Shown: piece after piece, positions 24,556-54,608 of the stretch
How the letters are laid out: every line of letters begins with the position of its first letter
How positions within the stretch are numbered: position 1 is the stretch's first letter
DNA from: Escherichia phage EC128
Sequence record: ON210139.1
DNA: 64,000 nt
Direction: 5' to 3' (one strand)
The notes under the pieces: generated by a model
What the model was told of the DNA's origin: nothing
The model's database searches: none
The model's input: the letters and a program-made list of their open reading frames with translations, nothing else
Position numbers and translations under genes: made by a program

Positions 24556-25443
24556 ATGTCAGCGGTAATTAATAATGTCAATGCAGTAATTAAATCTTTA
24601 GTTAATAAAAAATCAAATGAATGGACTGTACTTCAACGCGACAAGTCAGATAAATTTTTTCATAAATTTAACCCAGTACTAAATTTAAATGTTATTGATA
24701 AAGATGTTCACGCCGAAATTTTAGATAAGTTTAAAGTTGATATTGGATTTGGATTAGAAAAACATTTACAACGAACAAACGAGTCTGGAATGCTTTTATC
24801 TAATCGCATCATGAAAGCCCTTAATAAAATTGGAGCATTGTCTCGCATTAACGCGAGTGAAATTCTTCGCAATTATAATAAAGGATATGACCTTTATGGC
24901 CGACTAATGCCAAAATTATCATTCGACCAAATGATTGCGGATTTGTGGGAAAATCAACGACGATTATTAGCATTAGGTGCTCGATTAGCTAAAGGTCTAG
25001 ATAAACAAATGATTTTTAAAACTAATAATACAGAAGACCTTAAATGCTTTAAATTTAGTACTCGTGGAGATGATTATTACGTCAGAGCTCACTCTACAGA
25101 TTATGTTAATATGGGGCATCATCTCTGTTTAGCTTTTGAAGTTTTAAAAGAAGCTGGAACATTAGAATATGTGTCTGGTGCTAAATGCCCGATTGGTTCA
25201 AGTTGTATTTTAATTTATCGCCCGGATGAATCCAGTTCATCTAAATTGCCTACAAAACCTGCACCAGTTCGTAGTAACGAAAAACATTCTGAACAAATTG
25301 ATTATTTTAATAAGCAAATTGAAGAGCTGAATATTTCTATTCAACGATATGACGATGAAATTTTCAGACTATCTGGATTGAGTAGTAAAGCTAAATCTGA
25401 ACGTGAAAAATTAATTAAAATTGTTGATTTACTTAAATCTTAA
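24556..25443 (+). CDS. paralog family member 1 (coiled-coil C-terminus)
   Basis: 295 aa from ATG 24556 with GAGG RBS. Confidence 0.55.
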   Translation: MSAVINNVNAVIKSLVNKKSNEWTVLQRDKSDKFFHKFNPVLNLNVIDKDVHAEILDKFKVDIGFGLEKHLQRTNESGMLLSNRIMKALNKIGALSRINASEILRNYNKGYDLYGRLMPKLSFDQMIADLWENQRRLLALGARLAKGLDKQMIFKTNNTEDLKCFKFSTRGDDYYVRAHSTDYVNMGHHLCLAFEVLKEAGTLEYVSGAKCPIGSSCILIYRPDESSSSKLPTKPAPVRSNEKHSEQIDYFNKQIEELNISIQRYDDEIFRLSGLSSKAKSEREKLIKIVDLLKS

Positions 25444-25451
25444 GGAACACC

Positions 25452-26471
25452 ATGAAAACTCGTTCTCAAATTGAAGATATGGTTCGTAATGCCAGTTATA
25501 CTCGTGATGTTATGACATTTTTGTGCCAAAATAATTTAGACCCTGATAAAGTTAATCGTGATATTCACTTTAAATATCTAAATAGCATTGAATTGTTACG
25601 TCATTTTAGTAAAGCGGGGTATATTACACAAATGACTGCTCGTGAGCAGCTCACCGATTTCTGTAAAACTATTGATTATAAAAATCCTCTATTTGTTCAA
25701 GGCGTTGGTCAGAGTAAGGTCGATTTATCATCTGGATTTTTCAATCCAAATCATTATCGTCTTGAATGGAGATTTATTGCTCTATTCCGTAAACAATTAA
25801 AGCAAATTTTGTCTACTGCTAGTCGATTAAAAGGTTCTGATATTAACTTAAAGAATCTGAAATTTGATGGTTATACTCTTCAAATGGAAGTAAGACCATC
25901 TAAAGAAAATAATAGAACTGCACGAATTAGCTTTAAGCCTAATACTAAAAATTCTCTTTCAATTTGTGAATGCCTTAAATCGCAGTTGACAGAAGCATTT
26001 AAGTATATGGATGTTGTTGCTGCTGTTCAATCTAAGATTTTACCTCGTTTTGAGCGAAATTGGGAACATACAACAACATATGAACTTGATATGATCGTTT
26101 CATTTAAATACGATTTTTTGAGAAAGGACGAAGTCCCGCAAGAGAAAAAGCAAGAAGTGCAAGATAACTTAAATTTATCCAATTACTCATCAAACGATCC
26201 TAAATTTTGGATGTATAGTTCAGGTAATAAAGATGCATGGAAATTCAATAAAGTGAATTTTCTTCCTGTTGAAAATCCGAGTCTTAAACCTGTTGAAAAA
26301 TGGCACGCGGATGCGATTGAGAAGTCTATCAAGGCAGTAGATGATGAACTCGTTAAAGCAACTAATGAAGTGTTAGAAGCTGAAAAGATGTTAGAAAAAG
26401 CTCAAGAAAAAGTCAAAAATCTCGCGAAGCAACGTTCTAAACTGAACAATGCACTAAATGCACTAAACTAG
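25452..26471 (+). CDS. paralog family member 2
   Basis: 339 aa; shares R.I..FR.FKKQILKSASKL-type motif with member 3. Confidence 0.6.
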   Translation: MKTRSQIEDMVRNASYTRDVMTFLCQNNLDPDKVNRDIHFKYLNSIELLRHFSKAGYITQMTAREQLTDFCKTIDYKNPLFVQGVGQSKVDLSSGFFNPNHYRLEWRFIALFRKQLKQILSTASRLKGSDINLKNLKFDGYTLQMEVRPSKENNRTARISFKPNTKNSLSICECLKSQLTEAFKYMDVVAAVQSKILPRFERNWEHTTTYELDMIVSFKYDFLRKDEVPQEKKQEVQDNLNLSNYSSNDPKFWMYSSGNKDAWKFNKVNFLPVENPSLKPVEKWHADAIEKSIKAVDDELVKATNEVLEAEKMLEKAQEKVKNLAKQRSKLNNALNALN

Positions 26472-26528
26472 TTTACTTTGCCACAAGGATGTGGTATAAT
26501 GTTCTTACTTTCTACTGAGGAGATTATT

Positions 26529-27530
26529 ATGACTCGTAACGAATATATCAAATCATTCAATAGCGTTATTGATGATAAAGTTAAACCTGTGTTTAGTCAG
26601 AATAGTGTTATTTCCATTATCAATCAATGGCTAAATAATATTGATGTAAGCATTGTTTCTTCCAGCAAATTTATTCACGAAGTTCGTGAAATTTCTAGTC
26701 GTACAGATAAAGATGACATTAAGAAAACCTTTAAAGGGTCTCGTCTTCTTTCATACTTAGTCAACAGAGATATTCTTGGTAAATTTGGGAAAGAAATTAA
26801 ACGAACTAAAGATGTAATAGGATACAGTTGGTTCGGTGATGTTAATTCTTATCATCTTAATAATAAAGAAGACCCTGAGAATATTTTTACTCGTCGTTGG
26901 ATTAGTAATTTTAGACTTTTCAAGAAGCAAATTCTAAAATCAGCTTCTAAATTATGCTATGGTGATTATCGTCAAATCCATCCTTGGGCTTCTGATATGA
27001 TTATCATAAAAGAATATGAGCTTGATAAAAATAAAGCAGCTATTTTTGTGAATTATGAATTTTTTACACCAGAAGCTAATCAAAAGAACATTAATAAATT
27101 TTTCTCAATTGCTAGCGATATAACTCGTCAGTTAGAGACCGCATTACTTTGTATGGAAACAGTAGAAAATATTCATACTTATCCTTTTAAGAATATATGC
27201 GGTTGGGAAGGATATAAAATTGTAGTTAGTCTCCGTGAAGTAAAGTGTGCGTACTCACCGACTGATAAAGAAATTTACCAACAAAAATGTGATGAAATTG
27301 TGAATACTCCTAAAGAAGAAACTACCCTTGAGGAACTAATGGAATGTCTTGACGATTCGCCTGAACCAGTAGAAATTCGTCCAGAAGTTATTGCACTAGA
27401 AAAAGCTTATAAAGAAGTTCTAGAAATTTCTAATAAAGCGCAGAAAGAATATGAGCAGGCTAAAAGGATTTGGGAAGAATCTGTTAATCGCCTGGATCGT
27501 CTTGAACAAGCTTTACAGTTAATTAAGTAA
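26529..27530 (+). CDS. paralog family member 3
   Basis: 333 aa from ATG 26529 with GAGGAG RBS. Confidence 0.6.
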   Translation: MTRNEYIKSFNSVIDDKVKPVFSQNSVISIINQWLNNIDVSIVSSSKFIHEVREISSRTDKDDIKKTFKGSRLLSYLVNRDILGKFGKEIKRTKDVIGYSWFGDVNSYHLNNKEDPENIFTRRWISNFRLFKKQILKSASKLCYGDYRQIHPWASDMIIIKEYELDKNKAAIFVNYEFFTPEANQKNINKFFSIASDITRQLETALLCMETVENIHTYPFKNICGWEGYKIVVSLREVKCAYSPTDKEIYQQKCDEIVNTPKEETTLEELMECLDDSPEPVEIRPEVIALEKAYKEVLEISNKAQKEYEQAKRIWEESVNRLDRLEQALQLIK

Positions 27531-32380: not shown

Positions 32381-33654
32381 TGAACACGTTATTCAGTTCA
32401 AACGGACAAACGCCTTTTGTAACAATTACATTTGGTACGGGAACTGACTGGACTGAACGAATGATTCAGAAAGCAATTTTGAAAAATCGTATTAAAGGTC
32501 TTGGTCGTGATGGGATAACTCCTATTTTCCCTAAGCTTGTTATGTTCGTTGAAGAAGGTGTTAATCTTTATAAAGACGATCCGAACTATGATATTAAGCA
32601 GCTTGCTCTAGAGTGTGCAAGCAAAAGGATGTATCCTGATATTATTTCAGCTAAGAACAATAAAGCTATCACTGGTTCATCTGTTCCTGTTTCTCCAATG
32701 GGTTGCCGTAGTTTCTTGAGCGTATGGAAAGATTCGACTGGTAATGAAATTCTTGATGGACGTAATAATCTTGGTGTTGTAACACTGAATCTTCCTCGCA
32801 TCGCGTTAGATTCTTATATTGGAACACAGTTCAATGAACAGAAATTTGTTGAATTATTCAATGAACGAATGGATTTGTGTTTTGAAGCATTGATGTGTAG
32901 AATTAGTTCCTTAAAAGGAGTTAAAGCTACTGTTGCTCCTATTCTTTACCAAGAAGGTGCATTCGGGGTTCGTCTTAAACCTGATGACGATATAATTGAG
33001 TTATTTAAAAGCGGTAGAAGTTCAGTGTCCCTAGGATACATTGGTATTCACGAATTGAATATTCTTGTTGGTCGTGATATTGGACAAGAAATTTTAACTA
33101 AAATGAATACTCATCTTAAACAATGGACTGAAAGAACTGGTTTTGCTTTTAGTTTGTATTCTACTCCTGCTGAAAACCTGTGCTATCGCTTCTGTAAACT
33201 TGATACCGAAAAATATGGAAGTGTAAAAGATGTTACCGATAAAGGCTGGTACACTAACAGTTTCCACGTTTCGGTAGAAGAAAATATTACTCCATTTGAA
33301 AAGATTTCTCGCGAAGCCCCATATCATTTCATTGCGACAGGTGGTCACATTTCTTATGTTGAACTTCCTGATATGAAAAATAACTTAAAAGGTCTTGAGG
33401 CCGTATGGGATTATGCTGCACAACATTTAGATTATTTTGGTGTTAACATGCCGGTAGATAAATGTTTTACATGCGGAAGTACCCATGAAATGACTCCTAC
33501 TGAAAACGGATTTGTTTGTTCTATTTGTGGAGAAACTGATCCTAAAAAGATGAACACCATAAGAAGAACATGCGGATATCTTGGAACTCCTAGCGTTGTT
33601 CCATGGAATTTAGGTAAAATGAAAGAAATGGTAAAACGAGTAAAACATGCATAG
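32381..33654 (+). CDS. nrdD: anaerobic ribonucleotide reductase NrdD, exon 2
   Basis: Zinc site CFTCGSTH...CSICGE and glycyl-radical motif RRTCGYLG near the C-terminus. Confidence 0.85.
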
Positions 33655-34477
33655 GTATTATATAATTTATAAAATAACAAATATAATTAATTCAAAGGAA
33701 TATATCGGTGCGCATAGCACCGATAACATAAATGACGGTTATATGGGGTCAGGAACATTGATTCGTGCCGCTTTATTAAAATATGGTAGAAAAAATTTTA
33801 ATAAAGAAATTTTACATGTTTTTGATAATGAAAAACAAATGTATGATAAAGAAGCTGAACTTGTAACCGAAGAGTATTGTCTAAAAGAAAATACATATAA
33901 TATTAAACCTGGTGGAAAAGGTGGAACTGCCTATGAACAGACACTTGAACATCGCCGCAAAAATAGTTTAGCAAATAAAGGTAAAAAGAGAACAGAAGAA
34001 ACTAAAATAGCTATTTCACGTGCTTTAAAGAAATATAAACGTACGCCAGAGCATCAAGCAAATTTAAATAAAGCCGTAAGCATAGCTATGAAGCGAAAAG
34101 ATGTTAGAAGTAAATTAGCTGGAGAGCGGTCTGAGAAAGATAAATTATCTATATCAAACGGTGTTAAAAAATATTACAATTCTTTGAGTGAAGAAGAACG
34201 CGAACTTCATCGCAAGCGAATTATTGAAGGTAAAAAGAATTCTCCCATGTCATTGGAATCTAGACAAAAGCTTTCAAAAGCTTTAAAAGGACTTCAAGTT
34301 GGTTCAAAAAATCCAATGTATGGAAAAATTTCTCCAACTAGCAAAACCGTTTCAGTTGACGGTATTAAATATGATTCAATTAAAAAGTGCTCAAATGCCA
34401 TAAAAGTTTCTAGACATCTTATACTAAAACGCTGTAATTCTACTGATGAAGCTTGGAAAAATTGGATATTATTATGA
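33647..34477 (+). CDS. GIY-YIG homing endonuclease (seg-like) between nrdD and nrdG
   Basis: 276 aa; YYIIYKITNIINSKEYIGAHSTDNINDGYMGSG; overlaps the nrdD stop and the nrdG start. Confidence 0.75.
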   Translation: MHRYYIIYKITNIINSKEYIGAHSTDNINDGYMGSGTLIRAALLKYGRKNFNKEILHVFDNEKQMYDKEAELVTEEYCLKENTYNIKPGGKGGTAYEQTLEHRRKNSLANKGKKRTEETKIAISRALKKYKRTPEHQANLNKAVSIAMKRKDVRSKLAGERSEKDKLSISNGVKKYYNSLSEEERELHRKRIIEGKKNSPMSLESRQKLSKALKGLQVGSKNPMYGKISPTSKTVSVDGIKYDSIKKCSNAIKVSRHLILKRCNSTDEAWKNWILL

Positions 34478-39282: not shown

Positions 39283-40485
39283 ATGAAAGTATGTATTTTT
39301 ATGGCTCGAGGTCTTGAAGGTTGTGGTGTAACTAAATTTTCTCTTGAGCAACGTGATTGGTTTATTAAAAATGGTCATGAAGTAACTTTGGTTTATGCTA
39401 AAGATAAATCATTTACTCGTACAAGTTCTCATGACCACAAATCATTTTCAATTCCAGTTATTTTAGCTAAAGAATACGATAAAGCACTTAAGCTGGTAAA
39501 TGATTGTGATATTCTAATTATTAATTCTGTTCCTGCTACTTCCGTTCAAGAAGCCACGATTAATAACTATAAAAAACTTTTAGATAATATTAAACCTTCT
39601 ATTCGTGTTGTAGTTTATCAGCATGATCATTCTGTTCTTTCTTTGCGTCGAAATTTGGGATTAGAAGAAACTGTTCGTCGAGCTGATGTTATTTTTAGCC
39701 ATTCTGATAATGGTGATTTTAATAAAGTTCTGATGAAAGAATGGTATCCAGAAACTGTTTCTCTGTTTGATGATATTGAAGAAGCACCAACAGTATATAA
39801 CTTTCAGCCTCCTATGGATATTGCGAAGGTTCGGTCAACTTATTGGAAAGATGTTTCTGAAATTAACATGAACATCAACCGTTGGATTGGTCGTACGACT
39901 ACATGGAAAGGTTTTTATCAGATGTTTGATTTTCATGAAAAATTCTTAAAACCTGCTGGTAAATCCACTGTAATGGAAGGTCTTGAACGTTCCCCTGCTT
40001 TTATTGCAATTAAGGAAAAAGGTATTCCGTATGAATATTATGGTAATCGTGAGATTGATAAAATGAATCTCACGCCGAATCAACCGGCACAAATCCTAGA
40101 TTGTTATATTAATAGTGAAATGCTTGAACGAATGAGTAAATCTGGCTTTGGATATCAGTTGAGTAAACTTAACCAGAAATACTTACAACGCTCACTCGAA
40201 TATACTCATCTTGAATTAGGTGCTTGCGGTACAATTCCTGTTTTCTGGAAATCAACGGGTGATAATTTAAAATTCCGTGTTGATAATACTCCTTTGACCT
40301 CACATGATAGCGGTATCATTTGGTTTGATGAAAATGACATGGAATCAACATTCGAGCGTATTAAAGAATTGTCATCTGACCGAGCTCTTTATGACCGTGA
40401 GCGAGAAAAAGCATATGAATTTTTGTATCAGCACCAAGATTCAAGCTTCTGTTTTAAAGAACAGTTTGACATTATTACAAAATAA
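39283..40485 (+). CDS. agt: DNA alpha-glucosyltransferase
   Basis: 400 aa, CIFMARGLEGCGVTKFSLEQRDWFIKNGHEV...; recognisable as T4-type a-gt. Confidence 0.9.
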   Translation: MKVCIFMARGLEGCGVTKFSLEQRDWFIKNGHEVTLVYAKDKSFTRTSSHDHKSFSIPVILAKEYDKALKLVNDCDILIINSVPATSVQEATINNYKKLLDNIKPSIRVVVYQHDHSVLSLRRNLGLEETVRRADVIFSHSDNGDFNKVLMKEWYPETVSLFDDIEEAPTVYNFQPPMDIAKVRSTYWKDVSEINMNINRWIGRTTTWKGFYQMFDFHEKFLKPAGKSTVMEGLERSPAFIAIKEKGIPYEYYGNREIDKMNLTPNQPAQILDCYINSEMLERMSKSGFGYQLSKLNQKYLQRSLEYTHLELGACGTIPVFWKSTGDNLKFRVDNTPLTSHDSGIIWFDENDMESTFERIKELSSDRALYDREREKAYEFLYQHQDSSFCFKEQFDIITK

Positions 40486-47216: not shown

Positions 47217-49913
47217 ATGAAAGAATTTTATATCTCTATTGAAACAGTCGGAAATAACATCGTTGAACGTTATATTGATGAAAACGGAAAGGAACGTACT
47301 CGTGAAGTAGAATATCTTCCGACTATGTTTAGGCATTGTAAGGAAGAGTCAAAGTACAAAGACATCTATGGTAAAAATTGCGCTCCTCAAAAATTTCCAT
47401 CAATGAAAGATGCTCGAGATTGGATGAAGCGAATGGAAGACATCGGTCTCGAAGCTCTCGGTATGAACGATTTTAAACTCGCTTATATCAGTGATACATA
47501 TGGTTCAGAAATTGTTTATGACCGAAAATTTGTTCGTGTAGCTAACTGTGACATTGAGGTTACTGGTGATAAATTTCCTGACCCAATGAAAGCTGAATAT
47601 GAAATTGATGCTATCACTCATTATGATTCAATTGACGATCGTTTTTACGTCTTTGATTTGTTGAATTCAATGTACGGTTCAGTATCAAAATGGGATGCAA
47701 AGTTAGCTGCTAAGCTTGACTGTGAAGGTGGTGATGAAGTTCCTCAAGAAATTCTTGACCGAGTAATTTATATGCCATTTGATAATGAGCGTGATATGCT
47801 CATGGAATATATCAATCTTTGGGAACAGAAACGACCTGCTATTTTTACTGGTTGGAATATTGAGGGATTTGACGTTCCGTATATCATGAATCGCGTTAAA
47901 ATGGTTCTCGGTGAACGCAGTATGAAACGTTTCTCTCCAATCGGTCGAGTAAAATCTAAACTAATTCAAAATGTGTACGGTAGCAAAGAAATTTATTCTA
48001 TTGATGGCGTATCTATTCTTGATTATTTAGATTTGTATAAGAAATTCGCATTTACTAATTTGCCGTCATTCTCTTTGGAATCAGTTGCTCAACATGAAAC
48101 CAAAAAAGGTAAATTACCATACGACGGTCCTATTAATAAACTTCGTGAGACTAATCATCAACGATACATTAGTTATAACATCATTGACGTAGAATCAGTT
48201 CAAGCAATTGATAAAATTCGCGGGTTTATCGATCTAGTTTTAAGTATGTCTTATTACGCTAAAATGCCTTTTTCTGGTGTAATGAGTCCTATTAAAACTT
48301 GGGATGCTATTATTTTTAACTCATTGAAAGGTGAACACAAGGTTATTCCTCAACAAGGTTCGCACGTTAAACAAAGTTTTCCGGGTGCATTTGTGTTTGA
48401 ACCTAAGCCAATTGCTCGTCGATATATTATGAGTTTTGACTTGACGTCTCTGTATCCGAGTATTATTCGTCAGGTTAACATTAGTCCTGAGACTATTCGT
48501 GGGCAGTTTAAAGTTCATCCAATTCATGAATATATCGCAGGAACAGCTCCTAAACCGAGTGATGAATATTCTTGTTCTCCGAATGGATGGATGTATGATA
48601 AGCATCAAGAAGGTATCATTCCAAAGGAAATCGCTAAAGTATTTTTCCAGCGTAAAGATTGGAAAAAGAAAATGTTCGCTGAAGAAATGAATGCCGAAGC
48701 TATTAAAAAGATTATTATGAAAGGCGCAGGGTCTTGTTCAACTAAACCAGAAGTTGAACGATATGTTAAGTTCAGTGATGATTTCTTAAATGAACTATCG
48801 AATTATACTGAATCTGTTCTCAATAGTCTGATTGAGGAATGTGAAAAAGCAGCTACACTTGCTAATACAAATCAGCTGAACCGTAAAATTCTCATTAACA
48901 GTCTTTATGGTGCTCTTGGTAATATTCATTTCCGTTACTATGATTTGCGAAATGCTACTGCTATCACAATTTTCGGCCAAGTTGGTATTCAGTGGATTGC
49001 TCGTAAAATTAATGAATATCTGAATAAAGTATGCGGAACTAATGATGAAGATTTCATCGCAGCAGGTGATACTGATTCGGTATATGTTTGCGTAGATAAA
49101 GTTATTGAAAAAGTTGGTCTTGACCGATTCAAAGAGCAGAACGATTTAGTTGAATTCATGAATCAGTTCGGTAAGAAAAAGATGGAACCTATGATTGATG
49201 TTGCATATCGTGAGTTATGTGATTATATGAATAACCGCGAGCATCTGATGCATATGGACCGTGAAGCTATTTCTTGCCCTCCACTTGGTTCAAAGGGCGT
49301 TGGTGGATTTTGGAAAGCGAAAAAGCGTTATGCTCTGAACGTTTATGATATGGAAGATAAACGATTTGCTGAACCGCATCTAAAAATCATGGGTATGGAA
49401 ACTCAACAGAGTTCAACACCAAAAGCAGTGCAAGAAGCTCTCGAAGAAAGTATTCGTCGTATTCTTCAGGAAGGTGAAGAGTCTGTCAAAGAATACTACA
49501 AGAACTTCGAGAAAGAATATCGTCAACTTGACTATAAAGTTATTGCTGAAGTAAAAACTGCGAACGATATAGCAAAATATGATGATAAAGGTTGGCCAGG
49601 ATTTAAATGTCCGTTCCATATTCGCGGTGTGCTAACTTATCGTCGAGCTGTTAGTGGTCTGGGTGTAGCTCCAATTTTGGATGGAAATAAAGTAATGGTT
49701 CTTCCATTGCGTGAAGGAAATCCATTTGGTGACAAGTGCATTGCTTGGCCGTCGGGCACAGAACTTCCAAAAGAAATTCGTTCTGATGTACTGTCTTGGA
49801 TTGACTACTCAACTTTGTTCCAAAAATCGTTTGTTAAACCGCTTGCGGGTATGTGTGAATCGGCTGGTATGGACTATGAAGAAAAAGCTTCGTTAGACTT
49901 CCTGTTTGGCTGA
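47217..49913 (+). CDS. 43: DNA polymerase (family B) gp43
   Basis: 898 aa; exo motif VANCDIEVTG, pol motifs FDLTSLYPSII and AAGDTDSVYV. Confidence 0.95.
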   Translation: MKEFYISIETVGNNIVERYIDENGKERTREVEYLPTMFRHCKEESKYKDIYGKNCAPQKFPSMKDARDWMKRMEDIGLEALGMNDFKLAYISDTYGSEIVYDRKFVRVANCDIEVTGDKFPDPMKAEYEIDAITHYDSIDDRFYVFDLLNSMYGSVSKWDAKLAAKLDCEGGDEVPQEILDRVIYMPFDNERDMLMEYINLWEQKRPAIFTGWNIEGFDVPYIMNRVKMVLGERSMKRFSPIGRVKSKLIQNVYGSKEIYSIDGVSILDYLDLYKKFAFTNLPSFSLESVAQHETKKGKLPYDGPINKLRETNHQRYISYNIIDVESVQAIDKIRGFIDLVLSMSYYAKMPFSGVMSPIKTWDAIIFNSLKGEHKVIPQQGSHVKQSFPGAFVFEPKPIARRYIMSFDLTSLYPSIIRQVNISPETIRGQFKVHPIHEYIAGTAPKPSDEYSCSPNGWMYDKHQEGIIPKEIAKVFFQRKDWKKKMFAEEMNAEAIKKIIMKGAGSCSTKPEVERYVKFSDDFLNELSNYTESVLNSLIEECEKAATLANTNQLNRKILINSLYGALGNIHFRYYDLRNATAITIFGQVGIQWIARKINEYLNKVCGTNDEDFIAAGDTDSVYVCVDKVIEKVGLDRFKEQNDLVEFMNQFGKKKMEPMIDVAYRELCDYMNNREHLMHMDREAISCPPLGSKGVGGFWKAKKRYALNVYDMEDKRFAEPHLKIMGMETQQSSTPKAVQEALEESIRRILQEGEESVKEYYKNFEKEYRQLDYKVIAEVKTANDIAKYDDKGWPGFKCPFHIRGVLTYRRAVSGLGVAPILDGNKVMVLPLREGNPFGDKCIAWPSGTELPKEIRSDVLSWIDYSTLFQKSFVKPLAGMCESAGMDYEEKASLDFLFG

Positions 49914-51137: not shown

Positions 51138-51878
51138 ATGATTAACGATTATATGACAGTTGAAGAAATCCGTCTTGATTTGGGTCTTGCATTAAAGGAA
51201 AAAGATTTCGTAATTGATAAAACCGGGGTTAAAACTATTGAAATTATTGGTGCATCATTTGTAGCAGATGAACCTTTTATTTTTGGCGCTCTTAATGATG
51301 AATACATTCAGCGTGAACTTGAATGGTATAAATCTAAGAGCTTGTTCGTTAAAGATATTCCAGGTGAAACACCGAAGATTTGGCAGCAGGTAGCATCTTC
51401 TAAAGGCGAAATTAACTCGAATTATGGTTGGGCTATCTGGTCAGAAGATAACTATGCTCAGTATGATATGTGTTTAGCTGAACTTGGTCAAAATCCTGAT
51501 TCTCGACGTGGTATCATGATTTATACTCGTCCATCCATGCAATTTGACTACAATAAAGATGGTATGTCAGATTTCATGTGTACGAATACAGTACAGTACC
51601 TGATTCGTGATAAGAAAGTCAATGCGGTTGTTAGCATGAGAAGCAATGATTGCTGGGCAGGCTATCGTAATGATTATGCTTGGCAAAAATACGTACTAGA
51701 TAAATTAGTATCTGATTTGAATGCAGGCGACCCATCGCGGCAATATAAAGCAGGTTCTATTATATGGAACGTTGGAAGTCTTCATGTGTACGAAAATCAG
51801 TTTTATTTAGTTGACCATTGGTGGAACACCGGTGAGACTCATATTGCTAAAAAGGATTATACTGGAAAATGGAAGTAA
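51138..51878 (+). CDS. 42: dCMP hydroxymethylase gp42
   Basis: 246 aa, thymidylate-synthase-like fold cues (DFMCT nucleophile region). Confidence 0.85.
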   Translation: MINDYMTVEEIRLDLGLALKEKDFVIDKTGVKTIEIIGASFVADEPFIFGALNDEYIQRELEWYKSKSLFVKDIPGETPKIWQQVASSKGEINSNYGWAIWSEDNYAQYDMCLAELGQNPDSRRGIMIYTRPSMQFDYNKDGMSDFMCTNTVQYLIRDKKVNAVVSMRSNDCWAGYRNDYAWQKYVLDKLVSDLNAGDPSRQYKAGSIIWNVGSLHVYENQFYLVDHWWNTGETHIAKKDYTGKWK

Positions 51879-52510
51879 ATGTGCCACATGTTTATAAGTA
51901 TAAACATCCTAAAACTAAAAAGTGGTATATAGGAAGTCATGATGGTCACAACCCGAATTATGACGGTTCGGGTGTAGTTTGGCAACATGCTAAAAAGAAA
52001 TATGGAATAAAATCCTTTAATAAAGAAATATTATATGAAGGACCAATGTTTAGACAGGTTGAAGAAATTATTTTAACTTGTTTAGATGCTGCTAATTGTC
52101 CGGATTCATATAATTTAAAGAATGAAGCATGGGGAGGAAGTTTTCCAGGCAAATTAAATGGAATGTACGGTAAAAAACTATCTCCAGAAGAAAGATATAA
52201 GTGCGGAAATGCCTTTCGTGGAATCAAGCGTCCTGATCATTCTAAAAGAATGAAAGGCGAAGGTAATCCAATGTATGGTAAAAATGAGCAGGCATATGGA
52301 ATTATAAATCGAGCAAAGGAAAATTCTGGTAAAACTTATGAAGAAATTTTTGGCGCAGAAAAAGCTAAAATAATTAAAGAAACGATGTCTAAAAATCGTA
52401 AAGGAAAACCTCATAATTTGATAGAAAAAATATGTCCGCATTGCGGACTAAAAGGACGTGGGCCAAATATGACAAGATACCATTTTGACAAATGTAAGGC
52501 ACTTAAATGA
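51869..52510 (+). CDS. GIY-YIG homing endonuclease (seg-like)
   Basis: 213 aa; HVYKYKHPKTKKWYIGSHDGHNPNYDGSG; overlaps flanking genes at both ends. Confidence 0.7.
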   Translation: MEVNVPHVYKYKHPKTKKWYIGSHDGHNPNYDGSGVVWQHAKKKYGIKSFNKEILYEGPMFRQVEEIILTCLDAANCPDSYNLKNEAWGGSFPGKLNGMYGKKLSPEERYKCGNAFRGIKRPDHSKRMKGEGNPMYGKNEQAYGIINRAKENSGKTYEEIFGAEKAKIIKETMSKNRKGKPHNLIEKICPHCGLKGRGPNMTRYHFDKCKALK

Positions 52511-53349
52511 TTCAATTCGTAATTCCAAGCTATCAACGCGTAGGGGCAGTTTCTGCCCTTGATATGTTTCCGACTGATTATGAACCACATATTGTAGTGC
52601 GTGAACACGAAGAAAAAGCTTATTATGATGCTTATGGGTCTAAAGCTAAAATTGTAACTATTCCTGATGATGTTAATGGAATTGCCGGTACTCGTAAAGC
52701 AATTACTGATATGTATGCAGGTCAACGAATCTGGATGATTGATGATGATACTACTATTCGTATGAGTTCAATACGAAAGAGAGACGATAAACGGCGCGTA
52801 GATAAAATTAATCAATTAACTCGTGAACAGTTCTATGAATTAATTCAATACGTTGAGGATGCTATGGATTGCGGGTATTATCACGGTCATGCTCGTCTAC
52901 CAATTTTTAAAATTACTTCATCTTGGGGTAATTATCGTGAAAACTCATATGGATTCACGAATACATGGTATGACCTCGGAAAACTTACGACAGAACAAAT
53001 TGGGTATGGAAAAATTGATTTATGTGAAGATATGTACGCATTTCTCAATTTAATTAATCAAGGTTATCCGCATTTGGCCTTGTTCAAATATCTAGTTGTA
53101 TCTGGAAAATCACACGCTCCCGGCGGGTGCAGTTCAATTCGTAGTAATTCTAAACATAATAGAGCGCTTGAACAAATCAATAGAGAGTTTCCAGAGCAAG
53201 CTTGTTGGAAAACTTCTAATATTGAAAAACGAAAATCGTTGGGTGAAGAAGACGAGCCATTAAAGGTTCTTCGCATGTGTGTTTCTCGTAAAGAAAAATC
53301 AGAAGCATTTCATAAGTTTAATGCTATTCATCCAATAGCAGTTGATTAA
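52507..53349 (+). CDS. GT-A-type glycosyltransferase at the beta-gt locus (candidate HMC-DNA glucosyltransferase)
   Basis: 280 aa; N-terminal FVIPSYQR and DxD motif WMIDDDT; sits between 42 and uvsX where T4 carries beta-gt. Confidence 0.5.
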   Translation: MIQFVIPSYQRVGAVSALDMFPTDYEPHIVVREHEEKAYYDAYGSKAKIVTIPDDVNGIAGTRKAITDMYAGQRIWMIDDDTTIRMSSIRKRDDKRRVDKINQLTREQFYELIQYVEDAMDCGYYHGHARLPIFKITSSWGNYRENSYGFTNTWYDLGKLTTEQIGYGKIDLCEDMYAFLNLINQGYPHLALFKYLVVSGKSHAPGGCSSIRSNSKHNRALEQINREFPEQACWKTSNIEKRKSLGEEDEPLKVLRMCVSRKEKSEAFHKFNAIHPIAVD

Positions 53350-53426: not shown

Positions 53427-54608
53427 ATGTCTATTGCAGATTTAAAATCCCGTTTGATTAAAGCTTCCACTTCTAAAATGACTGCTGAACTGACTACATC
53501 TAAATTCTTTAATGAAAAGGATGTAATTCGTACAAAAATTCCAATGCTTAATATTGCTATTTCTGGTGCGATTGATGGTGGTATGCAGTCTGGTTTAACT
53601 ATTTTCGCAGGGCCTTCTAAACACTTTAAATCAAATATGTCTTTGACTATGGTTGCGGCGTATTTGAACAAATATCCTGACGCGGTTTGTCTATTCTATG
53701 ATAGCGAATTTGGTATTACTCCAGCTTATTTGCGATCCATGGGAGTTGACCCGGAACGAGTAATTCATACGCCGATTCAGTCAGTTGAACAACTGAAAAT
53801 TGATATGGTGAACCAGCTTGAAGCTATTGAGCGTGGTGAAAAGGTTATTGTATTCATCGACTCAATCGGTAATATGGCTTCTAAGAAAGAAACGGAAGAT
53901 GCCTTGAATGAAAAATCTGTGGCAGATATGACTCGTGCTAAATCACTGAAGTCATTATTCCGTATTGTTACTCCTTATTTTAGCATTAAAAATATTCCAT
54001 GTGTTGCGGTTAACCATACAATTGAAACAATTGAAATGTTTAGTAAAACCGTGATGACAGGTGGTACAGGCGTAATGTATTCGGCTGATACTGTATTCAT
54101 TATCGGTAAGCGTCAGATTAAAGATGGTTCTGATCTTCAGGGGTATCAATTTGTTCTAAATGTAGAAAAATCTCGTACCGTTAAAGAAAAAAGTAAATTC
54201 TTTATTGATGTTAAATTTGACGGTGGTATCGATCCTTATTCTGGATTGTTAGATATGGCTCTAGAATTAGGATTTGTAGTAAAACCTAAAAATGGCTGGT
54301 ATGCTCGTGAATTTCTTGACGAAGAAACCGGCGAGATGATTCGCGAAGAAAAATCTTGGCGTGCAAAAGATACCAACTGCACTACATTCTGGGGTCCTTT
54401 ATTTAAGCATCAACCATTCCGAGATGCTATTAAACGTGCTTATCAGTTAGGTGCTATTGATAGTAATGAAATTGTTGAAGCTGAAGTTGATGAATTGATT
54501 AACTCAAAGGTTGAAAAATTTAAATCTCCAGAAAGTAAAAGTAAATCAGCTGCTGATTTAGAAACTGACCTCGAACAGTTAAGTGATATGGAAGAATTTA
54601 ATGAATAA
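53427..54608 (+). CDS. uvsX: RecA-like recombinase UvsX
   Basis: 393 aa; Walker A GPSKHFKS; acidic C-terminal tail. Confidence 0.9.
   Translation: MSIADLKSRLIKASTSKMTAELTTSKFFNEKDVIRTKIPMLNIAISGAIDGGMQSGLTIFAGPSKHFKSNMSLTMVAAYLNKYPDAVCLFYDSEFGITPAYLRSMGVDPERVIHTPIQSVEQLKIDMVNQLEAIERGEKVIVFIDSIGNMASKKETEDALNEKSVADMTRAKSLKSLFRIVTPYFSIKNIPCVAVNHTIETIEMFSKTVMTGGTGVMYSADTVFIIGKRQIKDGSDLQGYQFVLNVEKSRTVKEKSKFFIDVKFDGGIDPYSGLLDMALELGFVVKPKNGWYAREFLDEETGEMIREEKSWRAKDTNCTTFWGPLFKHQPFRDAIKRAYQLGAIDSNEIVEAEVDELINSKVEKFKSPESKSKSAADLETDLEQLSDMEEFNE

Follow-up and report, generated by a model that had tools for sequence, protein, structure and literature searches.

Genes between gene 42 and uvsX

Escherichia phage EC128 (sequence record ON210139.1), of which a stretch of 64,000 nucleotides was analysed (called the window here), carries two genes between gene 42 and uvsX, the interval in which T4 encodes its 351-amino-acid beta-glucosyltransferase (beta-gt) followed by segA. 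All four genes lie on the plus strand. Gene 42 (51138-51878; Pfam Thymidylat_synt, E = 1e-14) encodes dCMP hydroxymethylase (gp42), a protein of the thymidylate-synthase fold that is 92-93% identical to gp42 of T4 and T2, and uvsX (53427-54608; Pfam T4_UVSX_C, E = 5e-39) forms the right-hand border of the glycosylation slot. Directly after gene 42 comes an open reading frame (ORF) of 213 amino acids (51869-52510), a predicted free-standing, seg-like GIY-YIG endonuclease gene, and after it one of 280 amino acids (52507-53349), variously called ggt, ba-gt, or TAGT, which encodes a beta-glucosyl-HMC-alpha-glucosyltransferase. The genes are tightly packed. The shorter ORF overlaps gene 42 by 10 nucleotides, its ATG lying inside ...AAATGGAAGTAA, and it overlaps the longer ORF by 4 (ATGA). 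No segA is found in the window. The 3-kb stretch as a whole has 98.8% identity with Yersinia phage fPS-2 and 97-98% with many further Tequatrovirus genomes; the window comes from a T2/T6-like Tequatrovirus.

Both ORFs are real genes and not chance reading frames, since the longer one matches protein families and 688 phage records, while the shorter one matches phrog_314 and has 64 homologous clusters in metagenomes. An earlier reading of the bare sequence (the original prediction) had placed a 280-residue protein in the T4 beta-gt slot, with an endonuclease upstream that overlaps both its flanks. That layout holds.

The transferase

The 280-residue protein matches Pfam PF20691, the TET-associated glycosyltransferases (TAGT), with 39.1 bits against a cut-off of 27.5 and over profile positions 2-205 of 205. 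Its match to phrog_842 ('beta-glucosyl-HMC-alpha-glucosyltransferase') has E = 4e-87. It is identical to its counterpart in T2 at 269 of 280 positions (96%) and to that in T6 at 267 of 280 (95%), and in all three phages the gene stands between gene 42 and uvsX. The original prediction recommended alignment with the T2/T6 transferases and spoke of a fit to the T2/T6 situation. This was an understatement: at 96% identity, the protein is the T2/T6 enzyme itself. Also present are the motifs from which a GT-A, DxD-type glycosyltransferase had been predicted. FVIPSYQR occupies residues 4-11 (52516-52539) of an N-terminus that reads MIQFVIPSYQR, and WMIDDDT has its DDD at residues 79-81 (52741-52749). 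IPSYxR and the three aspartates (D79, D80, and D81) are invariant across TAGT homologues ranging from 96% down to 31% identity. Searching the PDB by sequence gave nothing meaningful for the transferase, for the endonuclease, or for a four-member Seg profile, so a comparison of folds was needed (NCBIfam, for its part, has no model for the transferase). An AlphaFold2 model of the ggt product, with a predicted local distance difference test (pLDDT) of 69 and a predicted template modelling score (pTM) of 0.73, has residues 1-90 mostly above 80 and a predicted GT-A-type fold. A published AlphaFold3 model of T6 TAGT likewise shows a GT-A fold, grouping next to GT2 (PMC13216743).

The gene is an intact copy of the T2/T6-type beta-glucosyl-HMC-alpha-glucosyltransferase gene. 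It shares with its T2 and T6 counterparts the length, the position, the signature motifs, the predicted fold, and an alpha-glucosyltransferase gene (alpha-gt) as partner, and it differs from them by 11 to 13 substitutions, none of them in invariant columns. The junctions also differ: in T2 and T6 the start of ggt overlaps the stop codon of gene 42, whereas in the window it overlaps the stop codon of the inserted endonuclease gene. Neither the transferase nor its synteny with T4 beta-gt is new, both being textbook knowledge, recently re-described, and the enzyme has been characterised for decades. The T2 and T6 genes were reportedly first cloned by Winkler and Rueger in 1993.

Both public records of T6 have a lesion in ggt, whereas the gene in the window is intact. 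In MH550421 (locus L003, 3138-3980, minus strand) codon 10 is TAG, where AP018814 has CAG, and in AP018814 (locus L019, 2135-2974, minus strand) a deletion of 3 nucleotides changes the invariant DDD to DD. Since T6 is the classic phage with gentiobiosyl-hydroxymethylcytosine (gentiobiosyl-hmC) in its DNA, both lesions may be loss-of-function variants of laboratory stocks or sequencing errors.

The T4 beta-glucosyltransferase (PF09198) occupies the same slot and, like the enzyme of the window, serves to glucosylate hmC in phage DNA from UDP-glucose (PMC13216743), but the two have no sequence similarity. A blastp comparison gave only chance matches of 7-11 residues (E > 4), and a hidden Markov model of beta-gt found no match in a related IMG/VR locus (L020). 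They differ in fold, GT-B in T4 and (by prediction) GT-A in the window, and probably also in acceptor, which is bare hmC for T4 beta-gt and, to judge from the identity with T2 and T6, alpha-glucosyl-hmC for ggt. Nor are they alleles of one gene, since TAGT and beta-gt stand side by side in Karamvirus: Enterobacter phage fGh-Ecl04 (locus L102, 567-3204) has gene 42, TAGT, a beta-glucosyltransferase gene, and then uvsX.

The hmC pathway is represented in the window both by gene 42 and by the alpha-gt that makes the acceptor. The product of the latter (39283-40485, plus strand) matches the T4 alpha-glucosyltransferase (alpha-GT; 1XV5 and 1Y6F) over its full length with E = 1.4e-276 in a phmmer search of the PDB. 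Going by the identity of these enzymes and by the literature on them, gp42 would make hydroxymethyl-dCMP, alpha-GT would after replication put glucose on hmC in alpha linkage, and the GT-A, DxD enzyme encoded by ggt would add a second glucose from UDP-glucose in beta-1,6 linkage. The product would be gentiobiosyl-hmC, with no beta-monoglucosyl-hmC. Deletion of ba-gt from T6 leaves a phage with only alpha-glucosyl-hmC and with greater sensitivity to the Brig1 glycosylase (PMC11078745). The combination of alpha-GT and TAGT is the usual one, the alpha-GT and beta-GT pair of T4 being found in 6 of 753 genomes (PMC13216743).

Might the transferase of this phage nonetheless act on another acceptor (beta-glucosyl-hmC, bare hmC, or a non-DNA substrate, for example) or use another sugar? 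The specificity of the family is not uniform, since some TAGT homologues are accompanied by alpha-GT, some by beta-GT, and some by neither (PMC13216743), and there are those 11 to 13 residues that differ from T2 and T6. Against this, the protein is 96% and 95% identical to its T2 and T6 counterparts and keeps every family-invariant residue, the window encodes only one partner transferase, which is nearly identical to T4 alpha-GT, and related Tequatroviruses that encode TAGT contain hydroxymethyl-deoxycytidine, its alpha-glucosyl form, and its alpha-gentiobiosyl form by liquid chromatography-mass spectrometry (PMC13390438). A departure from the T2/T6 chemistry is therefore most improbable.

The endonuclease

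The 213-residue protein matches phrog_314 ('homing endonuclease') with E = 2e-31 and resembles T4 SegA (32% identity over 167 residues, E = 5e-9) and SegC (about 35%). Matches to NUMOD3 and to TIGR01453, the only one that NCBIfam provides (group-I-intron endonuclease), fall below threshold. Its AlphaFold2 model has a pLDDT of 88 and finds its best fold match in the catalytic domain of I-TevI. In an alignment with I-TevI (taken from the T4 record), VYK, YIG, E66, and N82 stand opposite GIY, YVG, E75, and N90. The GIY-type motif VYKY lies at 51890-51901 and YIG at 51926-51934; NUMOD3-like repeats follow in the middle of the protein, and a C-x2-C...H-x3-C knuckle lies near the C-terminus (52433-52495). 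The four residues of this CCHC knuckle (C189, C192, H205, and C209), which SegA lacks, are invariant in 34 homologues. Homologues at 65-70% identity have kept this overlap of the ATG with the end of gene 42, in support of the annotated start. The original prediction of a seg-like GIY-YIG endonuclease is thus borne out by the family match, the fold, and the motif residues, and the features of the ORF point to an intact, free-standing homing endonuclease gene.

The protein belongs to the well-known Seg class and is itself uncharacterised. T4 SegA and other Seg proteins have in common with it an N-terminal Seg-type GIY-YIG domain with the YxGSG motif, a length of about 210-220 residues, intergenic insertion in the orientation of the neighbouring genes, sporadic distribution, and a diverged tract in the adjacent conserved gene. 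At 32% identity to SegA and about 35% to SegC, however, it is not the orthologue of any T4 seg gene. SegA borders the same slot on the uvsX side and cuts uvsX (PMC2988022), whereas the endonuclease of the window lies on the side of gene 42. The possibility of a SegA relocated to the opposite side of the slot was rejected, given the 32% identity and the fact that true SegA adjoins ggt elsewhere. With I-TevI (in the td intron) and I-BmoI (in the thyA intron) it shares a tie to a gene of the thymidylate-synthase fold. Those two are encoded within introns, while this one is free-standing, placed after a stop codon and about 210-350 nucleotides from its candidate target patches (see below), and its DNA-binding region is unlike that of I-TevI, whose DNA-binding domain it does not match: it consists of NUMOD3-like repeats and the terminal CCHC knuckle. 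A literature search that covered few of the subscription journals found no paper naming or testing this endonuclease.

What lies next to the gene is constant on one side only. In all nine of the phage-record contexts inspected (fPS-2, Mexia, MHG19, and the six records whose annotation names the neighbour, out of 87 records sharing the endonuclease family) the endonuclease gene adjoins gene 42. In six of six metagenome contigs, with homologues of 45-58% identity, a thymidylate-synthase-fold gene lies directly upstream on the same strand, and the genes downstream are unrelated to one another (IMP dehydrogenase-like, helicase, NTP transferase, dCMP deaminase with a family-A polymerase, and hypotheticals). 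In IMG/VR, such a gene is upstream at 16 of 16 loci with at least 47% identity, compared with 5 of 64 loci of more distant relatives. Only at the T-even locus, among these, is TAGT downstream of the endonuclease. Since the thymidylate-synthase-fold gene is the sole constant neighbour and the downstream genes vary, the endonuclease belongs with gene 42 and not with the transferase. This strict tie is the one mildly new point; no paper on it was found in the incomplete literature searched.

Insertion beside gene 42

Among phage records at 95% identity or more, roughly 77 have the endonuclease and roughly 470 have ggt; about 84% of TAGT-bearing relatives lack the endonuclease. T2, T6, and PST are among those that lack it (called seg-less below, as opposed to seg-bearing), and in them the stop codon of gene 42 overlaps the start of ggt (ATGA) exactly at the insertion point. 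The insertion is exact: both start/stop overlaps are kept, and the 3' end of the endonuclease gene supplies TAAGG as a ribosome-binding site for ggt. The two genes have not travelled together. Shigella phage SHFML-11 has an endonuclease 100% identical to that of the window and a ggt only 97.1% identical, while PST has a ggt 99.3% identical and no endonuclease, and it follows that the endonuclease gene spread across ggt backgrounds.

In Klebsiella phage vB_KpnM_GF (locus L008, 1864-2600), gene 42 is apparently truncated (...IIWNAPSP, then stop) and followed directly by the last 30 or so codons of the endonuclease gene and by the transferase gene. Either a deletion removed the 3' end of gene 42 along with most of the seg gene, or the arrangement is an assembly artefact, the genome being partial.

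The gene upstream contains a diverged tract that travels with the endonuclease gene. Compared with PST in bins of 100 nucleotides, the window is 96-100% identical except over the last 330 or so nucleotides of gene 42, where identity is 83-88%, and directly after the endonuclease gene it returns to 98-100%. This tract (51545-51878, plus strand) is 82-90% identical to seg-less PST, T2, T6, and T4, while its flanks are 96-100% identical. Across phage records, identity to the tract is bimodal, with 82 records at 95% or more and 420 at 80-90%; the 82 come close to the number of seg-bearing records. A similar break appears in Jiaodavirus, where gene 42 of seg-bearing Mexia and seg-less KP179 are 93-100% identical over the first 450 or so nucleotides and 56-83% over the rest, while their transferases are identical at 275 of 278 positions.

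Two patches of gp42 distinguish the alleles. Patch A is MRSND-CWAGY (51636-51665) and patch B is ENQ (51792-51800), and we take both to lie within conserved active-site motifs of thymidylate synthase. In the seg-bearing window, Mexia, and MHG19, gp42 has D-CWA-G and [E/Q]NQ; in seg-less T4, T2, PST, KP179, and fGh-Ecl04, it has D-VVF-G and [S/E]RH. The alternation of CWA/NQ with VVF/RH co-varies with presence of the seg gene in three to four genera. In T4 td, the homologous counterpart of patch A is the sequence QRSVDVFLG, which holds CAACGCTCAGTAGATG and, in the T4 record, ends at the insertion point of the intron. This segment is presumably the region cleaved by I-TevI. Taken together, the sequence comparisons make gene 42 the probable target gene of the endonuclease and suggest patches A and B as candidates for the site that it cuts. 

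Two other candidates for an allele signature did not fare well. Codon changes for Arg and Ser within patch A (CGC TCA to AGA AGC) looked at first like recoding for immunity, a case weakened by the other genera, in which seg-less alleles use AGC or TCG and seg-bearing ones CGC or CGA; only VVF/CWA and RH/NQ co-vary consistently. Nor is CWAGY common to all seg-bearing genes of the thymidylate-synthase fold, as it is missing from some of the more distant contigs.

Perhaps the 213-residue ORF is a decaying or domesticated remnant that no longer homes, and its link to a gene 42 allele reflects a single past recombination. The gene is nearly invariant (73 records are at least 99% identical), leaving little signal of ongoing selection; phage PD112 keeps the seg-linked allele of gene 42 with no seg gene; the remaining codons in Klebsiella phage GF show that the gene decays; and no late or middle promoter is recognised near it. 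On the other hand, the full-length ORF is intact, with its GIY, YIG, Glu, and Asn positions and the invariant CCHC knuckle. The pairing with a thymidylate-synthase-fold gene is met again in phages of unrelated backbone, with proteins 45-70% identical, which requires repeated mobility, and the same break in gene 42 alleles is seen independently in Jiaodavirus. Near-identity of the endonuclease across diverged ggt backgrounds indicates recent horizontal spread. A remnant is accordingly the unlikelier case, though one to be taken seriously, and an active homing gene is preferred.

Endonucleases and the exchange of transferases

The original prediction went further and proposed the endonuclease as a plausible driver of the swap of transferases. 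In its full form, this explanation would have the endonuclease arrive in the lineage by homing, together with the transferase gene, and displace a T4-type beta-gt. There are observations in its favor. Homologues of the endonuclease adjoin both types of transferase, TAGT in the window and in Mexia and beta-gt in MHG19; segA of T4 adjoins TAGT in 8 phages; and in Salmonella phage Manna ggt stands between the two endonucleases. Furthermore, beta-gt and TAGT share no homology, so repair of a break in gene 42 or in uvsX against a heterologous partner would have to copy the whole cassette; by extension of the SegF/SegG model (PMC2988022), a double-strand break in gene 42 that is mended from a T4-type partner would call for copying through to uvsX.

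The evidence nonetheless goes mostly the other way. The ggt DNA of the window is 98-100% identical to that of seg-less PST, and the diverged parts are confined to the gene 42 tract and the seg gene. T2, T6, PST, and most other TAGT-bearing Tequatroviruses do without the endonuclease, as noted above, and the endonuclease follows thymidylate-synthase-fold genes whatever lies downstream. TAGT occupies the same slot in Jiaodavirus and Karamvirus at 64% identity and so is old there, and the combination of alpha-GT with TAGT is common while the T4 pair is rare (PMC13216743). Comparisons of records already suggest that seg-bearing and seg-less alleles of ggt are interleaved. Finally, the tandem in fGh-Ecl04 means that differential loss could have produced the T4-type slot as well as the T2-type slot, an explanation that is sufficient and an equally good origin of the difference between T4 and T2. 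It is thus quite improbable that TAGT came to replace beta-gt here through the endonuclease. Very probably, instead, ggt is simply the T2/T6 enzyme and the endonuclease gene is a homing gene directed at gene 42, inserted later and not the bringer of ggt.

A lesser, facilitating role in the exchange of cassettes with T4-type phages is plausible. The slot is found with various combinations of transferase and flanking endonucleases. T2 has ggt with an endonuclease on neither side, and the window has ggt with the seg gene on the gene 42 side only. PD112 and seven other phages have ggt with SegA on the uvsX side, and T4 has beta-gt with SegA on that side, the gene 42 side being empty in all of these. 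MHG19 has beta-gt with the seg gene on the gene 42 side and no SegA, and Manna has ggt with both. Evidently the cassette and the flanking endonucleases reassort.

Some of these loci deserve description. Yersinia phage MHG19 (locus L006, 1767-4237) has a homologue of the endonuclease, at 65% identity, flanked by gene 42 and by a T4-type beta-gt, the latter 57% identical to that of T4; none of the other 87 records shows this arrangement. In Manna (PP987310, about 24900-26530), the endonuclease on the gene 42 side and SegA flank ggt. PD112 (locus L009, 1527-3776) has ggt and SegA, and this junction of ggt with segA occurs in nine records (8 phages), where SegA is 98% identical to that of T4.

On the uvsX side the picture is repeated. 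A stretch of some 400 nucleotides in the 5' part of uvsX in the window (53473-53900) is 95-100% identical to that of PST, T2, and T6, which lack SegA, and 66-89% identical to that of T4 and PD112, which have it. This SegA-linked tract of divergence is the counterpart of the one in gene 42, and the window carries the allele of the SegA-less type. SegA cuts uvsX, and the co-conversion model is established for SegF and SegG (PMC2988022).

A homing model and its difficulties

How might the endonuclease have come to lie where it does? In a mixed infection, it would cut gene 42 in its seg-less form, the break probably falling within either of the two patches that encode the active site, i.e., at about codons 167-176 (the homologue of the I-TevI site in td) or about codons 217-221. 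Repair from the seg-bearing genome would then copy the endonuclease gene along with the immune 3' end of gene 42, some 330 nucleotides long. With a T4-type partner (gene 42, beta-gt, segA, uvsX), the repair would copy the whole non-homologous cassette.

From this one may go on to a broader proposition: that these endonucleases form an undescribed GIY-YIG subfamily specialised on thymidylate-synthase-fold genes; that the immunity alleles recode active-site loops of gp42, one of them the homologue of the homing site of I-TevI and I-BmoI; and that together with SegA the endonuclease brackets the cassette, so that homing from either side against a heterologous partner forces the entire cassette to be exchanged, whether it holds beta-gt, TAGT, or both. 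As a joint claim, we hold this to be tentative and on balance doubtful.

Several observations weigh against parts of the interpretation given here. CWA/NQ is not present in every one of the more distant seg-bearing contigs, and PD112, as mentioned, has the seg-linked allele with no seg gene. The diverged tract of gene 42 could be an imported recombination patch and not an immunity allele. The Pfam GIY-YIG models remain below threshold for the 213-residue protein, and no equivalent of I-TevI Arg27 is evident in it (the same is true of T4 SegA, which is active). As for the transferase, confidence in the GT-A fold is moderate because of two low-confidence loops in the model, residues 127-149 and 195-210, both below 50, with the model as a whole at a pLDDT of 69. 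Moreover, gentiobiosyl-hmC makes up about 5% in T2 as against 72% in T6 (cited in PMC13390438) with near-identical enzymes, and for this reason its share in the present phage is not predictable.

Other features of the window

Upstream of gene 42 lie the gene for DNA polymerase gp43 (47217-49913, plus strand) and, between the two, imm.1 and imm on the same strand; genes 40 and 41, also on the plus strand, follow uvsX. Within codons 12-18 of ggt is a GC-rich hairpin that resembles a terminator (52541-52561, plus strand; GGGGCAG-TTT-CTGCCCT, followed by a T-rich stretch). It is annotated 'terminator' in fPS-2 and is kept in T2 and T6, and in a context of 101 nucleotides it folds no better than shuffled controls (z = 0.44). 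The T4 late promoter TATAAATA has no match near 51-53 kb, and in a search for a promoter specific to the endonuclease, sigma-70-like matches were no commoner than in shuffled sequence.

A second seg-like GIY-YIG ORF, of 276 amino acids, lies at 33647-34477 (plus strand) between nrdD and nrdG, where T4 has mobC. It matches Pfam NUMOD3 (3e-8), I-TevI_DNA-bd (3e-4), and SegE_GIY-YIG (2e-3), and we presume it to be a gene of the SegH type.

Significance

Which host defences a T-even phage can evade is decided by the pattern of sugars on its hmC. In vitro, gentiobiosyl-hmC withstands the Brig1 glycosylase, while alpha-monoglucosyl-hmC is attacked by it, and enzymes of the GmrSD type target glucosylated hmC (PMC11078745, PMC13216743). 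For annotators or users of phage therapy, the presence of ggt marks this phage as one of the T2/T6 modification type, which in itself tells biology nothing new. The endonuclease offers a modest gain. Its strict link to thymidylate-synthase-fold genes, along with the co-variation of two gp42 patches across genera, yields a candidate target that can be tested, and the data on it provide a concrete model for the exchange of glycosylation cassettes between phages. If the model is true, homing that brackets the cassette would help explain why patterns of hmC sugars are so patchy among T-even phages.

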